Position numbers and translations under genes: made by a program
Notes under the pieces: model-generated
The model's input: the letters and a program-made list of their open reading frames with translations, nothing else
Databases searched by the model: none
What the model was told of the DNA's origin: nothing
NCBI GenBank assembly: GCA_963805045.1
Contig: CAWDTC010000025.1
Location: 42,372-106,371, forward strand
DNA: 64,000 nucleotides
Direction of reading: 5' to 3'
Origin: Candidatus Aminicenantes bacterium
GTDB taxonomy: Bacteria > Acidobacteriota > Aminicenantia > Aminicenantales > Saccharicenantaceae
Part shown: in pieces, positions 52,721 through 59,555 of the stretch
How positions within the stretch are numbered: the first letter of the stretch is position 1
Layout of the letters: each line of letters opens with the position of its first letter

Positions 52721-53584
52721 TCAGCGATGCCGCGGCTCTACTTGGCGGCCGGTTCGGGCAGGCCCTCGTCCGGCTTGGGATGGCGGCGGCTTGGCTTCCG
52801 GCTTGGCCGCCTTCTTCTTGGGGCCGGTCAACGGTTCGGCCAATTCGATCTTCACTTCGCTGGCCAGGGCGACCGGTCCCGGCCGGTTCGGCGGCGTCAT
52901 TCCCTTGACCGAGACCTTGTCCCCATTGCGGACAAGGTTCAAGTCGGTCAGGTCGACGCTGATCTTCGGCTCGTCGGCCAACTCGAACTGGACGGTGGTG
53001 CGGCCGGCGCGGACCGAGAGTTTGCCGCCGCGGCCGACGATCAGTCCGCCGAGGATGCGGTAGGTGCCTGCGGCGGGGCCTTTGCCGCCGGCCGCCGCGG
53101 CGTGTTTGGCGTGTTTGCCGTCGGCGGCCCCGGCGTTGCCGCCCAACTCGCCTCCCTGGCCGCCGGAATCGCCCTGGCCGTCGCCGCGCCGCCGGCCGGG
53201 AAGAGCCCCAACTTTCTCCTTGCCGGGCGTGGTGACGGTCAGCTCGGCGACTTTCCCTTGCGCCACGCCGTGATTGTCGATCTCCGCCTGGAACTCCACC
53301 ACCAGTCCGGCGGTCCGAGCGGAGAAAGTCGGCCGAGGCCGTGCCGGTCACGTGGACGCGTGGCGCTGGCGGAACGGCGATTTGCCAGCTTTGATTCTTG
53401 TCGTCCAGCAGCAGGATGACGCCCCGCCCGACGCCCTCGAACAGTGCCCTGCACGGTCGACCGGTTTCGCTTGCGGGGCTGGTTGCCGGCCGGGTCCGCG
53501 GGGCATCATCTGCGCCGCGCAGCGCGCGCCGCCAAGCCCGAGCCGCCAACGCGCCGCGGCCAAGGAGAGGAAGCGGAACAACAT
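52721..53584 (-). CDS. Secreted protein with a repeated beta-rich domain of about 55 aa and a Lys/Pro/Ala-rich tail (paralog of the next gene; frameshifted)
   Basis: RBS AAGGAG then ATG at 53584 and a signal-like MLFRFLSLAAARWRLGLGGA. C-terminal KISVDLTDLNLVRNGDKVSVKG...IELAEPLTGPKKKAAKPEAKPPP. Confidence 0.45.
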
Positions 53585-53590
53585 GGCACG

Positions 53591-54839
53591 CTACTCCTTC
53601 TTCTCCGGTTTCTTCTCCGGCTGCTTTTCCGGTTTCGGCCAGCGAGTAATAACGCGCCGCGCCGGTCTCATCCACAAAGAACATGACGTTGCCGTAGAAC
53701 CAGAGCTGCCAGGCGAGCTGCGTCTTCTGGCCGTCGGGGCCCTCGCTGATGAGGTGGGGAATGGCGATATGGTCGGGCTGACCGAACTTGTCCACGATGT
53801 CCTTGGTCGGCTCGGGCCGGCAGGGGGTGAACTCCAGGGCGGCTGCCGTCCTTGGTAGCTCACTTTCATGCCGTGCTTGCCCACCAATTCGGCCGGGGGC
53901 AATTGCAGAAATTGCACGAGTTGCTGGGCCTTGTCCGGCTTGCCGGCCGGCGGGTTGGCCGCCCCGCCGGGCTGGGCCGTCTCCGCGGGCGACTTGGCCG
54001 TCTCTTCGCCCGGCTTGTCGGCGGGCCGCTTGGCGACCGGGTGCCTGCGCCTTCTTGGCCGACCCGGTCAACGGCGCCGCCAGGTCGATGCGGACCTCCA
54101 GGGCCTGGATCGTGCTCCCGCCGGCGCCGAACTGATTGCCGATCACTTCAATCGCGTCGCCGACCCTGGCAAGGGAGTAGTCGTTCAGATCGACGGCGAC
54201 CTTGGGGTTCTCGGCCAACTCGACCAGCAGCTTGCGCCTGGAAGTGCTGGGTGAGGACGTTGACCGTCATCTTTCCCGCCCGATTGCTGAGGATGCGGCC
54301 GTGGATCTCGAGTTTCTCGCGCGGCCTTTTTCCCCTTGCCCGCGCCCGGCAGGTCGCACCGGGCAGTCCGCCGCCGGACTCCGGCGCGCGCGGCGCGCCG
54401 CCGGTCCCGCCCCGGGGATGGGCATGGGTCCGTCCGTGTGCTCGCGGGGGGGAATGGTGCCGGGGGCGGGGGTCCGCGGGTCGGGAGGCGTCACTCCCAG
54501 TGTCCGATCCGGCGTCTGCCCCGGCGTAAACACCGTCAGCGCCCCGACCTTCTCCTGCACGTGCCCGCTTTATCCACCGTGCCGATGAAACGCACGTAGA
54601 CGCCCGGCACGAGGATGTCCGGATCGGCCATGCCCAGAAGCCGCGTCTCCGTCTTGGGAGTCATCCCCAACGTGCAGCTCTGCCCGGAGGAGGTCGTCAG
54701 CAGGATCTTTCCCTGCCCGATTGCGGTGATGCTCCCCCGGATGCCGATCCGCAAAGGCTTGGGGCCAGGCCTGCTGGGCCTGGAGCGACGGCAAAGCGGC
54801 CAACACCAGACACACGGCGAAGAGACTGCGGCAAGTCAC
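53591..54839 (-). CDS. Secreted protein with about three copies of the same roughly 55-aa domain and a PEKQPEKKPEKKE tail (frameshifted)
   Basis: Signal peptide MTCRSLFAVCLVLAALPSLQAQQ at 54839. Domain copies ITAIGQGKILLTTSSGQS..., VAVDLNDYSLARVGDAIEVIGNQ...IDLAAPLTGSAKKAQAP and others across 4 frames. Confidence 0.45.
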
Positions 54840-54981
54840 GGTGCCACTCCCATGATAGGATTGCGGGAGGAAAGAGAGTACAGTCCGCCCCCCTTAGGAT
54901 ACCCCCAAACGTTGTGTTTGACCAGTGATCCTGTAAAATAGATGCCTCCCCAACAGTGTAATTCTACAATTCCCCAGAACG

Positions 54982-55782
54982 ATGAATCCAGAAGATCCAC
55001 AAATCACGGTCCCGCAATTCACCGCCATGAAGTCCGCCGGGCGGAAGATCACGATGCTGACGGCCTACGACTATGCCCTGGCCGGGCTAGTCGATACGAC
55101 CGGCATCGAGGGGATTCTGGTCGGCGACAGCCTCTCGATGGTGGTCCAAGGTCACGCCACCACGCTGCCGGTCACCCTGGAGGAAATGGTCTATCATGCC
55201 GAGATGGTGGGCCGGGCGGTGCGGCACGCCCTGGTGGTCGTCGACATGCCCTTCCCCAGCTTCCACCTCGGCGTGTACAAGGCCATCGAGAACGCCGGCC
55301 GCATCCTCAAGGAGACCCGCTGCCAGGCGGTGAAGCTCGAAGGCGGCAGCGAGCAGGCCGAGGTGATCGCCGGGCTGGTCTCGGCGGGCATCCCGGTGAT
55401 GGCCCATTGCGGGCTGCGCCGCAGAGCATCCACCAGCTCGGCGGCTACCGCGTGCAGCGCGACGAGCGGCAACTGCTGGCCGACGCCCAGGCCGCCGAGC
55501 ACTCCGGCGCGTTCGCCATCGTCCTGGAGTGCATTCCCGCCGAGACGGCCGCCCGGATCACCGCCGCGGTGAAGATTCCCACCATCGGCATCGGCGCCGG
55601 GGCGGGCTGCGACGGGCAGATCCTCGTCCTCCACGATCTGCTCGGGCCTGAGCCCCGGCCACACGCCCCGGCACGTCAAGGCGTACGCCGATCTGAGCAA
55701 GACCATTATCGACGCCGTCACCCGCTACCGCGACGAAGTCCGCGAGGGGAAGTTTCCGGGAGAGGAACACGCATTTTCGTAA
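54982..55782 (+). CDS. panB: 3-methyl-2-oxobutanoate hydroxymethyltransferase (ketopantoate hydroxymethyltransferase), one frame break near 55410
   Basis: [24 protein letters not shown] and KLEGG motifs. C-terminal half (...[10 protein letters not shown]...[15 protein letters not shown]) in a shifted frame; stop at 55780-55782. Confidence 0.85.
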
Positions 55783-55797
55783 CACCGGGGTGATGGG

Positions 55798-56265
55798 ATG
55801 GAGAGCGCGATGATGCCAATGTTGATTGCCTGGCCTCTTCCGAATCTCAAGCCCGAGGCCGACTGGAGCGAATCCGACCGCGAGATGGTCGATTTCATGC
55901 GAACCGCCTACGCCGAGGGTTATCGGCCCCGGATTCAGGAAGGCGACGGGGCGATTGCGGCCGGGGAACTCACGGGGCGGTCTGTGTTTCTGATTTGTCG
56001 CGGCCGAAACGGCTGGGAACCCCTGCTTGGCGACGGGGAACACACGGTTCGCCTCGGTCCAAGTTTTGGGCTCGAGGACTATGCGTGCGTATGCGTCCGG
56101 CCGCCGTTCCGCGCTGCTCGGCATCTCGCGTTGGAGTGGTTGCGCGGCCGGCCGTTTGCAGAGTTATTGTCGGACTTCGAGTTCGTCGGGGGACGGCCCG
56201 CGGGCATCATCCTGCGGTCCACCACAGCCGCCTCGTCTGCGACCGTGGCGGGCTGTCGCGAGTGA
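55798..56265 (+). CDS. Hypothetical protein (155 aa)
   Basis: Intact ORF; no recognisable domain. Confidence 0.45.
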   Translation: MESAMMPMLIAWPLPNLKPEADWSESDREMVDFMRTAYAEGYRPRIQEGDGAIAAGELTGRSVFLICRGRNGWEPLLGDGEHTVRLGPSFGLEDYACVCVRPPFRAARHLALEWLRGRPFAELLSDFEFVGGRPAGIILRSTTAASSATVAGCRE

Positions 56266-56273
56266 CGATTCCG

Positions 56274-56826
56274 TAGTGGCCAATCCCGGCGCCTCTGCCG
56301 GGGCGAGCCCGGCGGGGGCGATACGATTCCCACCTCCGCCCCTAGTGGTCAATCCTGCTTTCCGCCGGGACAAGCCCGGCGGGGGCGAAACGATTCCCAC
56401 CGGCACCTGTAGTAGCCAATCCTGCTTTCCGCCGGGACAAGCCCGGCGGGGAGCAATCTTGCTCTTGGCAGCGCTGGGAAGCGCCTGCCACGCGCCCCCG
56501 CCGGGCCTGCCCCGGCGGAGCGAAGGATTGGCCGACTACGGCCCATTTCCACCAGTCTGTTCCTCGCCCCCGCCGGGCCTGCCCCGGCGGAGCGAAGGAT
56601 TGGCCCACTACGGCCCATTTCCACCAGTTTCTTCGCCCCCGCCGGGCCTGCCCCGGCGGAGCGAAGGATTGGCCCACTACGGCCCATTTCCACCAGTTGT
56701 CCCGCCCCCGCCGGGCCTGCCCCGGCGGAGCGAAGGATTGGCCCACTACGGCCCATTTCCACTCAGTTGTCGGCTCCCCCCGCCGGGCCTGCCCCGGCGG
56801 AGCGAGGATTGGCCCACTACGCGTGC
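56274..56826. repeat. Array of about 70-bp hairpin-containing repeats: 3 diverged units in one orientation, then 5 units (period 69-72 bp) in the opposite orientation; REP/BIME-like
   Basis: Unit CGCCCCCGCCGGGCCTGCCCCGGCGGAGCGAAGGATTGGCCCACTACGGCCCATTTCCACCAGTT, with an 8-bp palindrome CCGCCGGG/CCCGGCGG. It fills the whole interval between the hypothetical gene and the transposase stop. Confidence 0.7.
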
Positions 56827-57190
56827 GGAATCGCCCCTAGATCGTATTCCCCGAACGTGCCAACATAGTATCCGAACTTAAAGACCCATTTCATCCCTTC
56901 GCGATACGCCAGGTTGTTCAGGAAGCGAACCGCGATCTCACCGGGCGAGTGGTCGGGCCGGCCGCCCAGCGCCAGATGAAGGTGATCGGAGAGGATCCCG
57001 ACGCGCGACAGCAGATAGCCGTGCTTTTCGCTCGACGGCGAGAATGTCGCCTTGGCGGGCCGCGATCCGCTCTTCCGAGAAATCCCGGAAGCGTTCGGCG
57101 CGGACCAGCACAATGTGCAGGTTGTACCAGTAAAGGGCGTGGTCGCCCTGCCGCGGCTGGGCGAGGTCAACCTGCGCGCGGCACACCTGA
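56817..57190 (-). CDS. IS200/IS605-like Y1 (HUH) transposase, copy 2 (frameshifted)
   Basis: HUH motif ...HGYLLSRVGILSDHLHLAL and tyrosine motif WVFKFGYYVGTFGEYDL in ORF 56817-57170. N-terminal YNLHIVLVRAERFRDFSEERIAAR is in the other frame. The stop lies inside the first repeat unit. Confidence 0.55.
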
Positions 57191-57204
57191 TGCGGCTCGA
57201 AAAC

Positions 57205-57666
57205 CGCTTGTGCCCTGGAATCGGCCATCGGGTGGTGTCCCGTTTGGCGGTGAACGTAGTTCTCCACGTGCTCGCGCTTGGCCGAGCCGATGGTGCGCAG
57301 AAATAATTCCGCTGGAAGGCTTTGGGTTGCTGCTTCCCGAACGAGGTATTGAAGCCGTCCCTTGACCGAGCGGACCAGCGCGTGCGGCGACACGGGCGGC
57401 TTCGTGCTCAACAGCAATTGGCTTGTGCCCGGCTCCGAAAACCGATGGTTCAACACCCGCACACCGTCCGGCTCGGTCGCTTGCTTCAAGGCATCGAGCC
57501 AACCGTCGCCGACCGGCGGATCCCGCCAGAAGACCGAGAGGCTCCAGTTGAGTTGGTAGGCTGGGCAGCAGTTGTCCAGAGTGTAAATGGCGGCCGGAGC
57601 GGGCATGTCTTCGGTTTTCGATAAGAACTCGGCCATGAAGTTTCCCCAAAGCCAATTGCCTTCCAT
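57205..57666 (-). CDS. IS200/IS605-like Y1 (HUH) transposase, copy 1 (degenerate or frameshifted)
   Basis: YQLNWSLSVFWR, a (D)H.HLLLS-like SQLLLSTKPPVSPHALVRSVKGR, FLRTIGSAKREHVENYVHRQTGHH: the TnpA domain order is preserved, but the HUH His pair and catalytic Tyr are not intact in this frame. Confidence 0.45.
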
Positions 57667-57782
57667 TCTACACGGTGTGTGTGATCGTGCCAGAAGTCCC
57701 TTAACCCAGCGTGATCATTGCTAAGCCGCCTTGTGGCCTGGCCCTTGACAGACCGCGGCGGATACCCTGAAATAGGGCCATT

Positions 57783-58867
57783 ATGCGAGAACTCCACGAC
57801 GGCCGCGAAGACGGCCTGCAACCGCTGGAATCGCTGGACGTCCGCCGGGCGAGCCGGCTTTGCCGACCTGCTCCGCCGCATGGCCCGCACCGCCTTCGGC
57901 GGCCGCGAGTTGGGCGAGGCCTTGGAGGTGCTCTCGGCCATGGCCGCCGACCCCGATTGCACCATCGTGGTCACGGTTTCCGGGGCCATGACCGTCGCCC
58001 AGATGGGCCGCGTGCTGTGCGAAATGATCGAGGAAGGGCTGGCCCACCTGGTCGTCAGCACCGGCGCGATCATGGCCCACGGACTCTCCGCGGCCACCGG
58101 CGGGGTCCACTACAAGCACGACCCGAGCATCCCCGACCAGCGCCTCTACGAGTGGGGCTACAACCGGGTCTACGACACCGTGGAGATGGAGGCGAACCTG
58201 CTCCGCGGGCAGGACTTGATCGCCCAGGTCATCGGCGGCTGGGACCGCTCGAGGCCGATGTGCTCGTGGGAGTTGAACCGGGAGATCGGCCGGCGGCTTT
58301 CCGAGCAGGGGCAGATGCCCAGCATCCTCGGCTGCGCCTACCAGCGCGGGGTGCCGGTCTACGTGCCGGCCTTCACCGACTCGGACATCGGCCTGAGCGT
58401 GTCGAAGGCGGTGCTGGGGCGGGAAAGCCCGCCGGGCGGGGAAAAGGACCTGGCGGCGTTCTTCGCGCCGGTCCCCTCGTACAATCCGTTCCTCGATCTG
58501 CACGACTACGCCCGGCGGGTCATTTCGGCCAAGCGGCTGGGGATATTCACCGTCGGCGGGGGCGTGCCGCGGAACTGGGCCCAACAGATCGGCCCGCTGG
58601 CCGACATCCTGAACATGCGGCCGGGCGTGGAGCTGCCCTCGCCGCGGTTCCAATACGCCGTCCGCCTCTGCCCCGAGCCCGTCCACTGGGGCGGACTGAG
58701 CGGCTGCACCTACAGCGAAGGCGTCTCCTGGGGCAAGTTCCTCAGCCGCCAACAGGGGGGCCGCTTCGCCGAGGTCCACTGCGACGCCACCATCGCCTGG
58801 CCGCTGCTGGTAAGGGCGTGGATCGAAGAGAACGGAGCAGCGGAAAAAGAGGCCGACCGGCGAATAG
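57783..58867 (+). CDS. Deoxyhypusine-synthase-like (DHS family) protein; frame breaks near both ends
   Basis: ...DCTIVVTVSGAMTVAQMG...VVSTGAIMAHG...LRGQD... typical of DHS-like proteins. The listed ORFs have no stop here; a stop in a shifted frame at about 58865 is assumed. Confidence 0.7.
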
Positions 58868-58897: not shown

Positions 58898-58902
58898 TAG
58901 TA

Positions 58903-59226
58903 ATGAAGCCGCTCGGATTCATCGGGCTCCAGCCGGATCGACCTCCGCAACTTCCCGGACGAGGCCCGCCGAGCGGCCGGGTTTCAACTCCGCGAAGTTC
59001 AACGCGGACTGGAGCCGTCCGATTGGAGGCCGATGAAGGCCGTCGGTCCCGGCGCGAGGGAGATCCGCATCCACGTGTCGGGCGAGTGGCGGGTAATCTA
59101 CGTGGCCGAGTTCCGCTGACGCGGTGTACGTGCTGCATTCGTTTCAGAAGAAGAGCCGAAAGACCGGCGCGCACGACATCGAGGTGGCCCGCCAACGGTA
59201 CAAGCGAGATCGGAGAACGGCCATGA
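58903..59226 (+). CDS. Type II toxin, RelE/ParE superfamily (HigB-like), one frame break near the N-terminus
   Basis: MKPLGFIG... then (shifted) ...LRNFPDEARRAAGFQLREVQRGLEPSDWRPMKAVGPGAREIRIHVSGEWRVIYVAEF...AVYVLHSFQKKSRKTGAHDIEVARQRYKR. A 1-nt shift near the end gives a TGA that overlaps the antitoxin ATG. Confidence 0.7.
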   Translation: MKPLGFIGLQPDRPPQLPGRGPPSGRVSTPRSSTRTGAVRLEADEGRRSRREGDPHPRVGRVAGNLRGRVPLTRCTCCIRFRRRAERPARTTSRWPANGTSEIGERP

Positions 59227-59507
59227 GAGAGAAAATCATCGAATCCTGCGGCAACGTGTTCGTCGATCTGGGCTTCCCTCCGGAGGAGGCCGCAATCCTG
59301 CAAATGCGGGCCGACCTGATGATCGATCTGCGGAAATTGATCAAGGCCAAGAGGCTCACTCAGGTCAAGGCCGCCAAGCTCCTCGGCATCAGCCAGCCCA
59401 GGGTGTCGGACTTGATCCAGGGAAAATGGGAGCGGTTCAGCCTGGAGATGCTGATCACGCTGGCCACTAGGGCGGGCATCCGCGTCCGCATCGAGACGGC
59501 GGCATAG
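59223..59507 (+). CDS. HigA-like antitoxin with an XRE-type helix-turn-helix
   Basis: MREKIIESCGNVFVDLGFPPEEAAILQMRADLMIDLRKLIKAKRLTQVKAAKLLGISQPRVSDLIQGKWERFSLEMLITLATRAGIRVRIE. Confidence 0.75.
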   Translation: MREKIIESCGNVFVDLGFPPEEAAILQMRADLMIDLRKLIKAKRLTQVKAAKLLGISQPRVSDLIQGKWERFSLEMLITLATRAGIRVRIETAA

Positions 59508-59555
59508 ACCTTGGCGAAGGAGGACGGAGGAGGATTTCCGGCATCAAGCGTCGCC

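Follow-up and report, generated by a model that had tools for sequence, protein, structure and literature searches.

What kind of element is formed by an array of hairpin repeats that abuts a transposase-like coding sequence: an insertion sequence, the relic of one, or a chromosomal enzyme lying beside its own repeats? The question is raised by a 64-kb stretch of the Candidatus Aminicenantes contig CAWDTC010000025.1 (the whole stretch is termed the window here, and coordinates are window positions), in which eight hairpin units at 56273-56820 adjoin a minus-strand gene encoding a protein of the Y1/HUH (TnpA_Y1) superfamily. A preliminary description of this DNA had likened it to a REP-associated tyrosine transposase (RAYT) accompanied by repetitive extragenic palindromes (REPs), and that arrangement is borne out by a protein that passes the Pfam Y1_Tnp profile, a covarying hairpin with a GTAG head, inverted flanking units in homologue loci and dispersal of the repeat in related genomes. 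We conclude that this is probably a REPtron-like locus of a planctomycete, that is, a chromosomal, vertically inherited gene for a Y1/HUH single-stranded DNA (ssDNA) endonuclease beside arrays of its cognate REP.

The coding sequence is assembled as two overlapping open reading frames (ORFs), at 56938-57666 and 56817-57170, which had been taken for two tandem transposase genes. Comparison with homologues, three-frame translation and alignment with the closest relative (locus L090) identify instead a single gene on the minus strand (56817-57606) for a two-domain protein of 262 aa, split by a 1-nt insertion near 57031-57045, where three-frame translation shows the frame to shift. A tblastn search of the window returned two high-scoring segment pairs with 99-100% identity to the repaired protein. 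More than 1000 homologues were found, many of them automatically named RayT by the Joint Genome Institute (JGI), and the full-length members are single proteins of ~262 aa spanning both halves; an exhaustive profile search sizes the family at 248 clusters at 50% identity with E ≤ 1e-30, and at 1130 with E ≤ 1e-3. Homologue starts point to the Met at 57604-57606, not 57666, as the probable start of the window protein. Taken separately, the two ORFs give one sub-threshold match and no match in Pfam, which is due to the frameshift, since the repaired protein passes Y1_Tnp (PF01797) with 34.4 bits against a cut-off of 23, as do the homologues P0002 (42 bits) and P0014 (52 bits). On the NCBIfam IS200 equivalog NF033573, which has a cut-off of 55, the repaired window protein scores 47.9, P0002 51.2 and P0014 62.6. 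The motifs DHLHLAL and GYYVGTFG, pointed out in the preliminary description, are both present in the protein.

Alignment with L090 locates three 1-nt indels in the gene, at 57031 (+1), 57302 (-1) and 57331 (+1). The latter two compensate each other and leave 10-11 codons out of frame (57290-57345), so that the conserved PKAFQRNYF, preserved in the +1 frame, is replaced by QSLPAELFL. The housekeeping gene panB (54982-55793) is likewise divided between two reading frames, 1-nt indels being located at 55419 and 55644, and the window differs from L090 by ~35 small indels over 3.5 kb of mostly coding DNA (52746-56270). Because indel density is similar in panB, assembly error is the simpler reading, and the indels in the gene are probably of that origin. 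The window probably comes from an uncorrected long-read assembly, in which a frameshift should count as a sign of a pseudogene only if reads support it. The protein matches its L090 counterpart at 83% identity outside the indels and retains all catalytic residues.

Conservation of the catalytic motifs is complementary between the two halves of the protein, as determined on family alignments of 25 and 113 members. Domain 1 (aa 1-128; 57223-57606, minus strand) contains the helix ENYVHRQTGHH, with Y117 (57256-57258) and Q121 (57244-57246), and reads SQLLLST at the position of the HUH motif, where the family has S-Q-F-L-V-S-T. Its family consensus is E-x-Y-V-x-x-Q-x-x-H-H, with F and not W ahead of the beta4 strand. 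Domain 2 (aa ~150-262; 56820-57158, minus strand) provides the HUH motif, with D207 (56985-56987), H208 (56982-56984) and H210 (56976-56978), and ends without a Tyr helix (...GYYVGTFGEYDLGAIPHA in the window, ...GYYVGTFGEYDLGA in the family). The codons of all these residues were verified. Across the 113 sequences Y117, D207, H208 and H210 are invariant and Q121 nearly so, while neither alignment contains an HUH motif in domain 1 or a Tyr helix in domain 2. The first half had previously been described as a degenerate copy; it has indeed lost its HUH motif, but it is the sole carrier of the invariant Tyr-Gln helix and hence not simply degenerate.

Profile matches divide along the same line. Domain 1 aligns to positions 54-121 of Pfam Y1_Tnp, its C-terminal half, and domain 2 to positions 3-72, its N-terminal half. 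A profile search of the PDB matched only IS200-type TnpA chains (Sulfolobus, ISDra2 and IS608), with domain 2 on residues 4-80, the HUH half, and domain 1 on residues 69-131, which comprise the Y...Q helix (including ...KKYIEEQ). An AlphaFold2 model of the intact homologue P0002 (pLDDT 95, pTM 0.91) nonetheless consists of two complete beta-alpha-beta-beta-alpha-beta domains, with an extra helix after the first only; circular permutation, considered as another origin for the half-profile matches, is ruled out by these two complete domains. The best Foldseek matches in the PDB are the IS200, ISDra2 and IS608 TnpA proteins, with TM-scores of 0.6-0.71 per domain.

In the IS608 structures of Ronning 2005 and Barabas 2008, the active sites are reportedly assembled in trans, from the HUH motif of one subunit and the Tyr helix of the other. 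From this arrangement and the split motifs, we infer that the two IS200-type domains would form a covalent pseudo-dimer within a single chain and share one composite active site, in which Y117 and H208/H210 should meet in space. Domain 1 would contribute the nucleophilic Tyr and a Gln metal ligand, and domain 2 the two His of the HUH motif, so that the site would be the counterpart of one of the two trans sites in a TnpA(IS200/IS605) dimer. TnpA_IS200 acts as a dimer, and its third metal ligand follows the catalytic Tyr by ~4 residues (PMC6006769).

The repeat array in the window occupies 56273-56820. A search for the palindrome CCGCCGGG-N5-CCCGGCGG with up to one mismatch gave eight matches, at 56295-56800, against 0.06 expected from shuffles, and none elsewhere in the 64 kb. 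Tandem Repeats Finder and repeat searches resolve these into block A, with three units of period 67 (~56273-56454), and block B, oppositely oriented, with five units at 56493-56821 and a period of 69-72. Searching the 64 kb by nhmmer with a 47-nt profile that draws on units from several genomes yields the same eight and no others. The number of units, their division into five direct and three inverse, the palindrome in each and the position of the transposase stop codon inside a unit thus all stand as originally described.

Block A comprises, on the minus strand, inv1 (56273-56320; nhmmer E=4e-10, one pattern mismatch), inv2 (56342-56387; E=9.6e-15) and inv3 (56409-56454; E=1.6e-13), the latter two also supported by pattern and repeat searches. 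The minus strand of inv1 reads from hairpin to CTAC, and its plus strand therefore from GTAG to hairpin; it is the most diverged of the units (CTGCCGGG/CCCGGCGG). A 38-nt spacer (56455-56492), which holds the small palindrome GGCAGCGCTGGGAAGCGCCTGCC and is paired in the fold of the whole array, separates the opposed blocks and has an equivalent of ~40 nt in L090. Block B comprises, on the plus strand, dir1 (56493-56539; nhmmer E=3.9e-13, together with pattern, tandem-repeat and repeat searches), dir2 (56565-56611; nhmmer and ssDNA fold), and dir3 (56634-56680), dir4 (56703-56749) and dir5 (56776-56820), all three by nhmmer. The plus strand of dir1 runs from hairpin to CTAC, and the gene strand accordingly from GTAG to hairpin. 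In dir5 the terminal CTAC (56817-56820) includes, on the opposite strand, the stop codon of the gene, a TAG at 56817-56819.

In each unit of ~47 nt, an 8-bp GC stem closes a 5-nt loop and is itself flanked by a 3-bp CGC/GCG outer stem; a conserved single-stranded tail, GGATTGGCC(C)ACTAC, follows. As the tail ends in CTAC, the opposite strand of the unit starts with GTAG, the classical REP head; units terminate in CTAC or CTAG, and the short palindrome with a conserved GT[AG]G head that defines REPtrons is present. Folded as ssDNA, dir2 forms the 8-bp stem, 5-nt loop and outer 3-bp CGC/GCG stem, with z-scores of -2.6 and -3.9 on the two strands, and the whole array folds much better than its shuffles (z = -13).

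The hairpin is under selection as a structure, and its stem covaries. Among 72 distinct units from several genomes, 96.6% of cells are paired and five of the 11 stem pairs have changed on both sides, two of the outer three among them; none of 500 shuffles reached the observed covariation score, and no slid register came near it. At the one stem pair where the scan pattern permitted either base, T-A was found 107 times and C-G 60 times, as opposed to seven C-A mismatches and four T-G wobbles. Stems from distant loci have changed to CCACCGGC/GCCGGTGG and CCACGGGG/CCCCGTGG on an unchanged framework. As far as sequence comparison can tell, these patterns are consistent with co-evolution of hairpin and protein. 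The enzymes of different genomes are only 63-69% identical, yet these genomes share a conserved 47-nt unit.

In all 10 homologue loci studied, the gene is bracketed by inverted units of the GTAG-tagged hairpin (L090, L001/L086, L002/L003, L018, L046, L039+L015, L113, L114 and L115, with a composite version in L116); L113 to L116 are the more distant loci, at 50-53% identity. Upstream units run from hairpin to CTAC and end 0-35 nt ahead of the ATG, and downstream units run from GTAG to hairpin. In the window, L090, L001, L002, L113, L114 and L115, the gene stops at the TAG contained in the first downstream GTAG; in L018 it stops at a TAA in a GTAA head. Such a layout is that of REPtrons (PMC6006769, PMC3333891). 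Expansion of the repeats on one side only, as reported previously, therefore applies to the window, where five units and then three inverted ones lie 3' of the gene, but not to L090 and the nine other loci, which have units on both sides. L018 (4400-5240; MFD01633.bin.2.50) carries a second, diverged gene copy of the same genome, with ~10 upstream units, many of which have an extra stem base (CCCGGACGGGGG), and with a doublet of the dispersed type directly beside the array.

Units are mostly arranged in head-to-tail arrays of up to 15 copies, with a period of 64-75 nt and a mode of 67-68 across the arrays compared (window, L005, L015, L018, L039, L046, L049, L083, L086, L103, L113, L114 and L115). 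The spacers of ~21 nt between units are near-identical within an array and unrelated between arrays. This constant pitch of ~68 nt may reflect a mechanistic ruler or, equally possibly, common descent of a 68-nt unit with spacer drift and homogenization.

Synteny between the window and L090, at ~85% nucleotide identity, covers the gene and its left flank and argues for vertical descent of the gene. The downstream structure of units, 40-nt spacer and inverted units is also common to both, with 5+3 copies in the window and 1+2 in L090. The two remain homologous over 52746-57623, up to a point no more than 1-2 nt from the GTAG in the upstream unit of L090 (L090 4599-4601); past 57623 the two sequences are unrelated. 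This suggests a rearrangement with its breakpoint at a repeat head, the type of site that is cleaved by E. coli TnpA_REP.

Dispersal of the unit was addressed by scanning GTDB species representatives, all of them genomes other than the source genome, with a degenerate core pattern. The scan yielded 108 blocks of 8 kb, almost all from planctomycete metagenome-assembled genomes (MAGs). Profile counts within the fetched blocks, which are lower bounds, come to at least 99 units in 46 blocks of MFD01689.bin.2.11, at least 43 in 15 blocks of a Pirellulales MAG, at least 29 in eight blocks of MFD01633.bin.2.50, at least 14 in three blocks of a Thermoguttaceae MAG and at least nine in three blocks of the window's closest relative. 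The dispersal that the preliminary description proposed as a check of the REP interpretation is seen in related MAGs, but not in the window, where nhmmer finds no unit outside the array. Thirty-eight inverted doublets were identified, all with heads inward around a central palindrome of ~110 nt, and in the closest relative doublets occur at two loci away from the gene. Tandem arrays also lie far from any gene copy (L083, L049, L005 and L103), and in loci with gene calls the arrays sit in the gaps between called genes. A metagenome scan with the window-specific unit returned a single element, from another organism.

Two further forms of the repeat were noted in the scanned genomes. The dispersed elements of MFD01689.bin.2.11 (L004, L011, L036, L052, L057, L061, L067, L091, L100, L104, L108 and L111) are palindromes of ~290 nt in which two REP units face inward around a long hairpin at the center, with inverted repeats (CTTGCGGTYTGTCGATTTAGTC) on the outside; from copy to copy, the hairpin arms vary by compensatory changes (TTTCCGCCGCCCGG/CCGGGCGGCGGAAA versus TTTCGGCCACCCGG/CCGGGTGGCCGAAA, for example). 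A MAG labelled Lentisphaerae, B1Sed10_208R1 (L006, L010, L012, L031, L044, L093 and others), presents the same hairpin and doublet layout with a different tail (GATTGCAAAT...) and no CTAC head; its fetched blocks contain neither a full-length profile match nor a gene copy, and its repeats may be a sister family with a different enzyme.

A mechanism for the locus can be proposed by analogy with E. coli TnpA_REP, which binds single-stranded REPs, needs GTAG, cleaves C|T dinucleotides, one of them in a site that overlaps CTAC, and can recombine such sites, a proposed route of BIME (bacterial interspersed mosaic element) amplification (PMC3333891). As in E. coli TnpA_REP and IS608 TnpA, the protein would bind REP hairpins extruded on ssDNA and read the conserved tail. 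Cleavage and rejoining would take place near the GTAG/CTAC head, at about C|TAC, and would copy or recombine REP units, giving rise to tandem arrays of ~68-nt pitch near the gene and to inverted doublets elsewhere. A role of the inactive domain may be to hold a second hairpin, as would suit the doublets. Catalytic activity, the position of cleavage and growth of the array by this route are thus predicted from the known enzymes.

Several observations weigh against the REPtron-like interpretation or parts of it. As assembled, the gene is frameshifted three times, with one pair of indels replacing the conserved PKAFRRNY segment, and, if these indels are genuine, the window copy is dead. The window contains no unit upstream of the gene by nhmmer, the upstream unit of L090 being missing past the break in synteny, and no REP copies in its other 63 kb; dispersal within the source genome itself is accordingly extrapolated from related genomes. 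One genome (CAVZZZ) carries two gene copies, ~64% identical to the query. The GTAG head lies 12-16 nt away from the foot of the hairpin instead of abutting it, and the YIxxNP and W[QE] motifs of classical (class 2) RAYTs are absent, with Y---Q--HH in their stead (compared with Table 1 of PMC6006769). Sequence similarity between domains 1 and 2 is not significant (hhalign E=0.14), although their alignment is in register at the HUH position, and internal duplication hence rests on the shared fold. Finally, Y254 (56844-56846), in the tail of domain 2, is nearly invariant, as is the G-E-Y-D-L-G motif around it; it could have a structural role or else act as a nucleophile, in place of Y117 or as a second one, near the only HUH site.

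Some of these points would be accommodated by a decayed relic, in which the gene is a pseudogene here and the array an inert product of replication slippage or unequal crossing-over, serving at most as a structural element (an mRNA 3' end or a protein-binding site) between convergent genes. The three frame-disrupting indels, the loss of the upstream unit with a synteny break at its position, the location of the array between convergent ORFs and the near-identity of units within each array, also expected from concerted evolution, would all fit. We regard this as unlikely, given that indels at similar density in panB and the ~35 indels against L090 over 3.5 kb point to assembly error, that the protein retains 83% identity to its L090 counterpart outside the indels with every catalytic residue in place, and that a layout conserved family-wide argues for function. 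Nor did a terminator scan find T-tailed hairpins in the array, which also excludes a cluster of intrinsic terminators. An autonomous IS200/IS605-type insertion sequence, with gene and hairpins transposing as a unit by the peel-and-paste single-strand mechanism, has in its favor the identity of the top sequence and fold matches, all IS200/IS605 transposases, the score of P0014 above the NCBIfam IS200 equivalog cut-off (62.6 versus 55), a Y---Q motif of class 1 type, the two gene copies in one genome and the tight bracketing of the gene by repeat heads. Such a mobile unit is nonetheless rather improbable: the ~85% identity of gene and left flank to a syntenic relative indicates vertical descent, the flanking hairpins are inverted and in arrays, as opposed to one left-end (LE) and one right-end (RE) hairpin in the same orientation, and no tnpB is found in any locus with gene calls. 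Moreover, the protein is a two-domain chain of 262 aa with one catalytic set and not a homodimer subunit of 150 aa, the window protein (47.9) and P0002 (51.2) fall below the equivalog cut-off of 55, and the CAVZZZ copies, at ~64% identity to the query, are not near-identical.

The remaining alternatives concern the identity of the parts. A pair of tandem but separate transposase genes, of which one is active and the other degenerate, would explain why there are two overlapping ORFs as assembled and why each yields a weak Pfam match or none; with more than 100 homologues that are single ~262-aa proteins across both parts, an ORF split that amounts to a 1-nt insertion and complementary conservation of the halves, this explanation is refuted for practical purposes. 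Scarcely any credence can be given to the array being a protein-coding repeat, a CRISPR-like array or a structured RNA gene, for which its regular periodicity and a 284-aa open frame across it (the ORF with PPPGLPRRSEGL repeats) could be cited. The periods of 67-68 nt in related arrays are not multiples of 3 and break any frame, so that this ORF is, as the preliminary description held, a mere reading of the array; in addition, the repeats are near-complete and leave no unique spacers, and the two blocks are inverted copies of each other. An Rfam search of 55500-58500 at relaxed thresholds gave no match to the array and one chance-level match outside it.

The REPtron-like locus is thereby retained as the probable interpretation, and a more specific proposal, for which the arguments appear to us evenly balanced, can be built on it. 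The planctomycete proteins may be a natural asymmetric, single-chain version of the TnpA(IS200/IS605) dimer, derived from a subclass-1.2-like domain that was duplicated and fused and then underwent complementary loss, with a single trans-type site left (Tyr and Gln of domain 1, HUH of domain 2) and the dead half kept for a second hairpin. An unusually conserved, co-evolving 47-nt REP with a GTAG tail would be deposited at ~68-nt pitch on both sides of the gene, the stop codon of which falls in the first repeat head, and as inward doublets, and the family, with at least 248 clusters at 50% identity, would form a separate, undescribed branch of domesticated Y1 endonucleases.

Two neighboring features in the window were also examined. 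An ORF of 155 aa on the plus strand (55798-56265) ends 8 nt before the first REP unit and has no Pfam match; it occupies the same position in L090 and is absent from the other homologue loci, and is probably not part of the system. Beyond the gene, 58900-59510 holds an apparent toxin-antitoxin pair, identified by eye only and merged or frameshifted as assembled, in which a HigB/RelE-like fragment (..VIYVAEF.. / VYVLHSFQKKSRKT) is followed by a protein with an XRE-type helix-turn-helix (KAKRLTQVKAAKLLGISQPRVSDL).

Of the repeat systems in bacterial chromosomes, those of the REP/RAYT type rank with the most abundant and the least understood. For the question of how a Y1 enzyme copies REPs, a fused enzyme with one Tyr and one HUH motif in different domains would be a natural experiment: it would identify the trans-assembled site as the functional unit of TnpA dimers, and it raises the question of what a single site and a dead hairpin-binding half can do, be it nicking and rejoining or recombination as against full two-ended transposition. 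The gene between inverted arrays of constant pitch, the stop codon in a repeat head and the compensatory stem changes that accompany divergence of the protein provide testable substrates. These loci would extend well-defined REPtrons to the Planctomycetota, and the size of the family suggests that surveys dropping Y1 proteins as "too long" fusions (PMC6006769) missed hundreds of clusters. As HUH tags, compact HUH enzymes of one chain that recognize a long, specific stretch of ssDNA would also be of practical interest.

Among characterized proteins, the closest in structure are the homodimeric TnpA transposases of IS200/IS605 elements (IS608, 2A6M/2VJV; ISDra2, 2XM3; Sulfolobus, 2EC2/2F4F), with which each domain shares its fold (TM 0.6-0.71) and the protein as a whole the HUH motif, the Y-x3-Q spacing and a dimer-like pairing of Tyr and HUH from different domains, in line with the trans active sites of the dimer. 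Here, in contrast, the subunits are fused and asymmetric, with one catalytic set and not two, and the loci lack subterminal LE/RE hairpins of like orientation, a tnpB gene wherever genes were called, and any indication of an insertion sequence in multiple copies. Class 1.1, defined by a homodimeric TnpA of ~150 aa with its own HUH and Tyr, does not describe a two-domain protein of 262 aa. Subclass 1.2 of TnpA_Y1 (Cyanobacteria and Bacteroidetes; PMC6006769) has the Y---Q--HH signature of domain 1 in identical form and apparently shares low copy number and behavior that is not like that of an insertion sequence, but its proteins consist of a single domain (148 aa) that carries HUH and W motifs of its own, and REPs are not reported to accompany them. 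Class 3 (Planctomycetes, Acidobacteria and Proteobacteria; PMC6006769) was considered because of the shared phylum, a REPtron-like arrangement and a Q-type Y motif, and was set aside, its proteins being single-domain, of 178 aa, with NHVH and Y----Q, and its repeats having a CnGA foot and not GTAG. The classification of Quentin et al. 2018 contains no two-domain subclass, unusually long proteins having been set aside as fusions (PMC6006769). While the pairing of REPs with RAYTs is already known, a fused two-domain enzyme with half an active site in each domain is apparently undescribed: no account of any transposase-like Y1/HUH protein in fused or tandem form came up in the literature consulted, the coverage of which was incomplete enough for an earlier one to be possible.

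On the side of the repeats, GTAG-tagged families have been reported in the PVC (Planctomycetes-Verrucomicrobia-Chlamydiae) superphylum, and tandem reiteration of such units is known (Di Nocera 2013, PMC3733652). REPINs (Bertels & Rainey 2011) are likewise dispersed inverted REP doublets able to form long hairpins; the doublets found here differ from these and from the GTAG-tagged families in having their heads inward around a ~110-nt central palindrome and, in one genome, extra outer inverted repeats. As a whole, the system resembles the REPtron of E. coli TnpA_REP/RAYT with its REPs and BIMEs (PDB 4ER8; Nunvar 2010; Ton-Hoang 2012, PMC3333891; PMC6006769). In sequence, the Y---Q--HH signature without YIxxNP or a W motif places the protein nearer IS200 class 1 than RAYT class 2, and 4ER8 was neither matched in the PDB profile search nor among the 50 best Foldseek matches. 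Further differences are a two-domain chain with HUH and Tyr in separate domains, a conserved tail of 12-16 nt between GTAG and hairpin, and flanks that consist of head-to-tail arrays of ~68-nt pitch and not of alternating BIME pairs. Judging by the homologue loci and related genomes, both systems would nevertheless have in common an apparently low-copy chromosomal Y1/HUH gene set between inverted GTAG-tagged hairpins, one active site per polypeptide, and dispersal of the repeats around the genome, with inverted pairs frequent and tandem clusters occasional.

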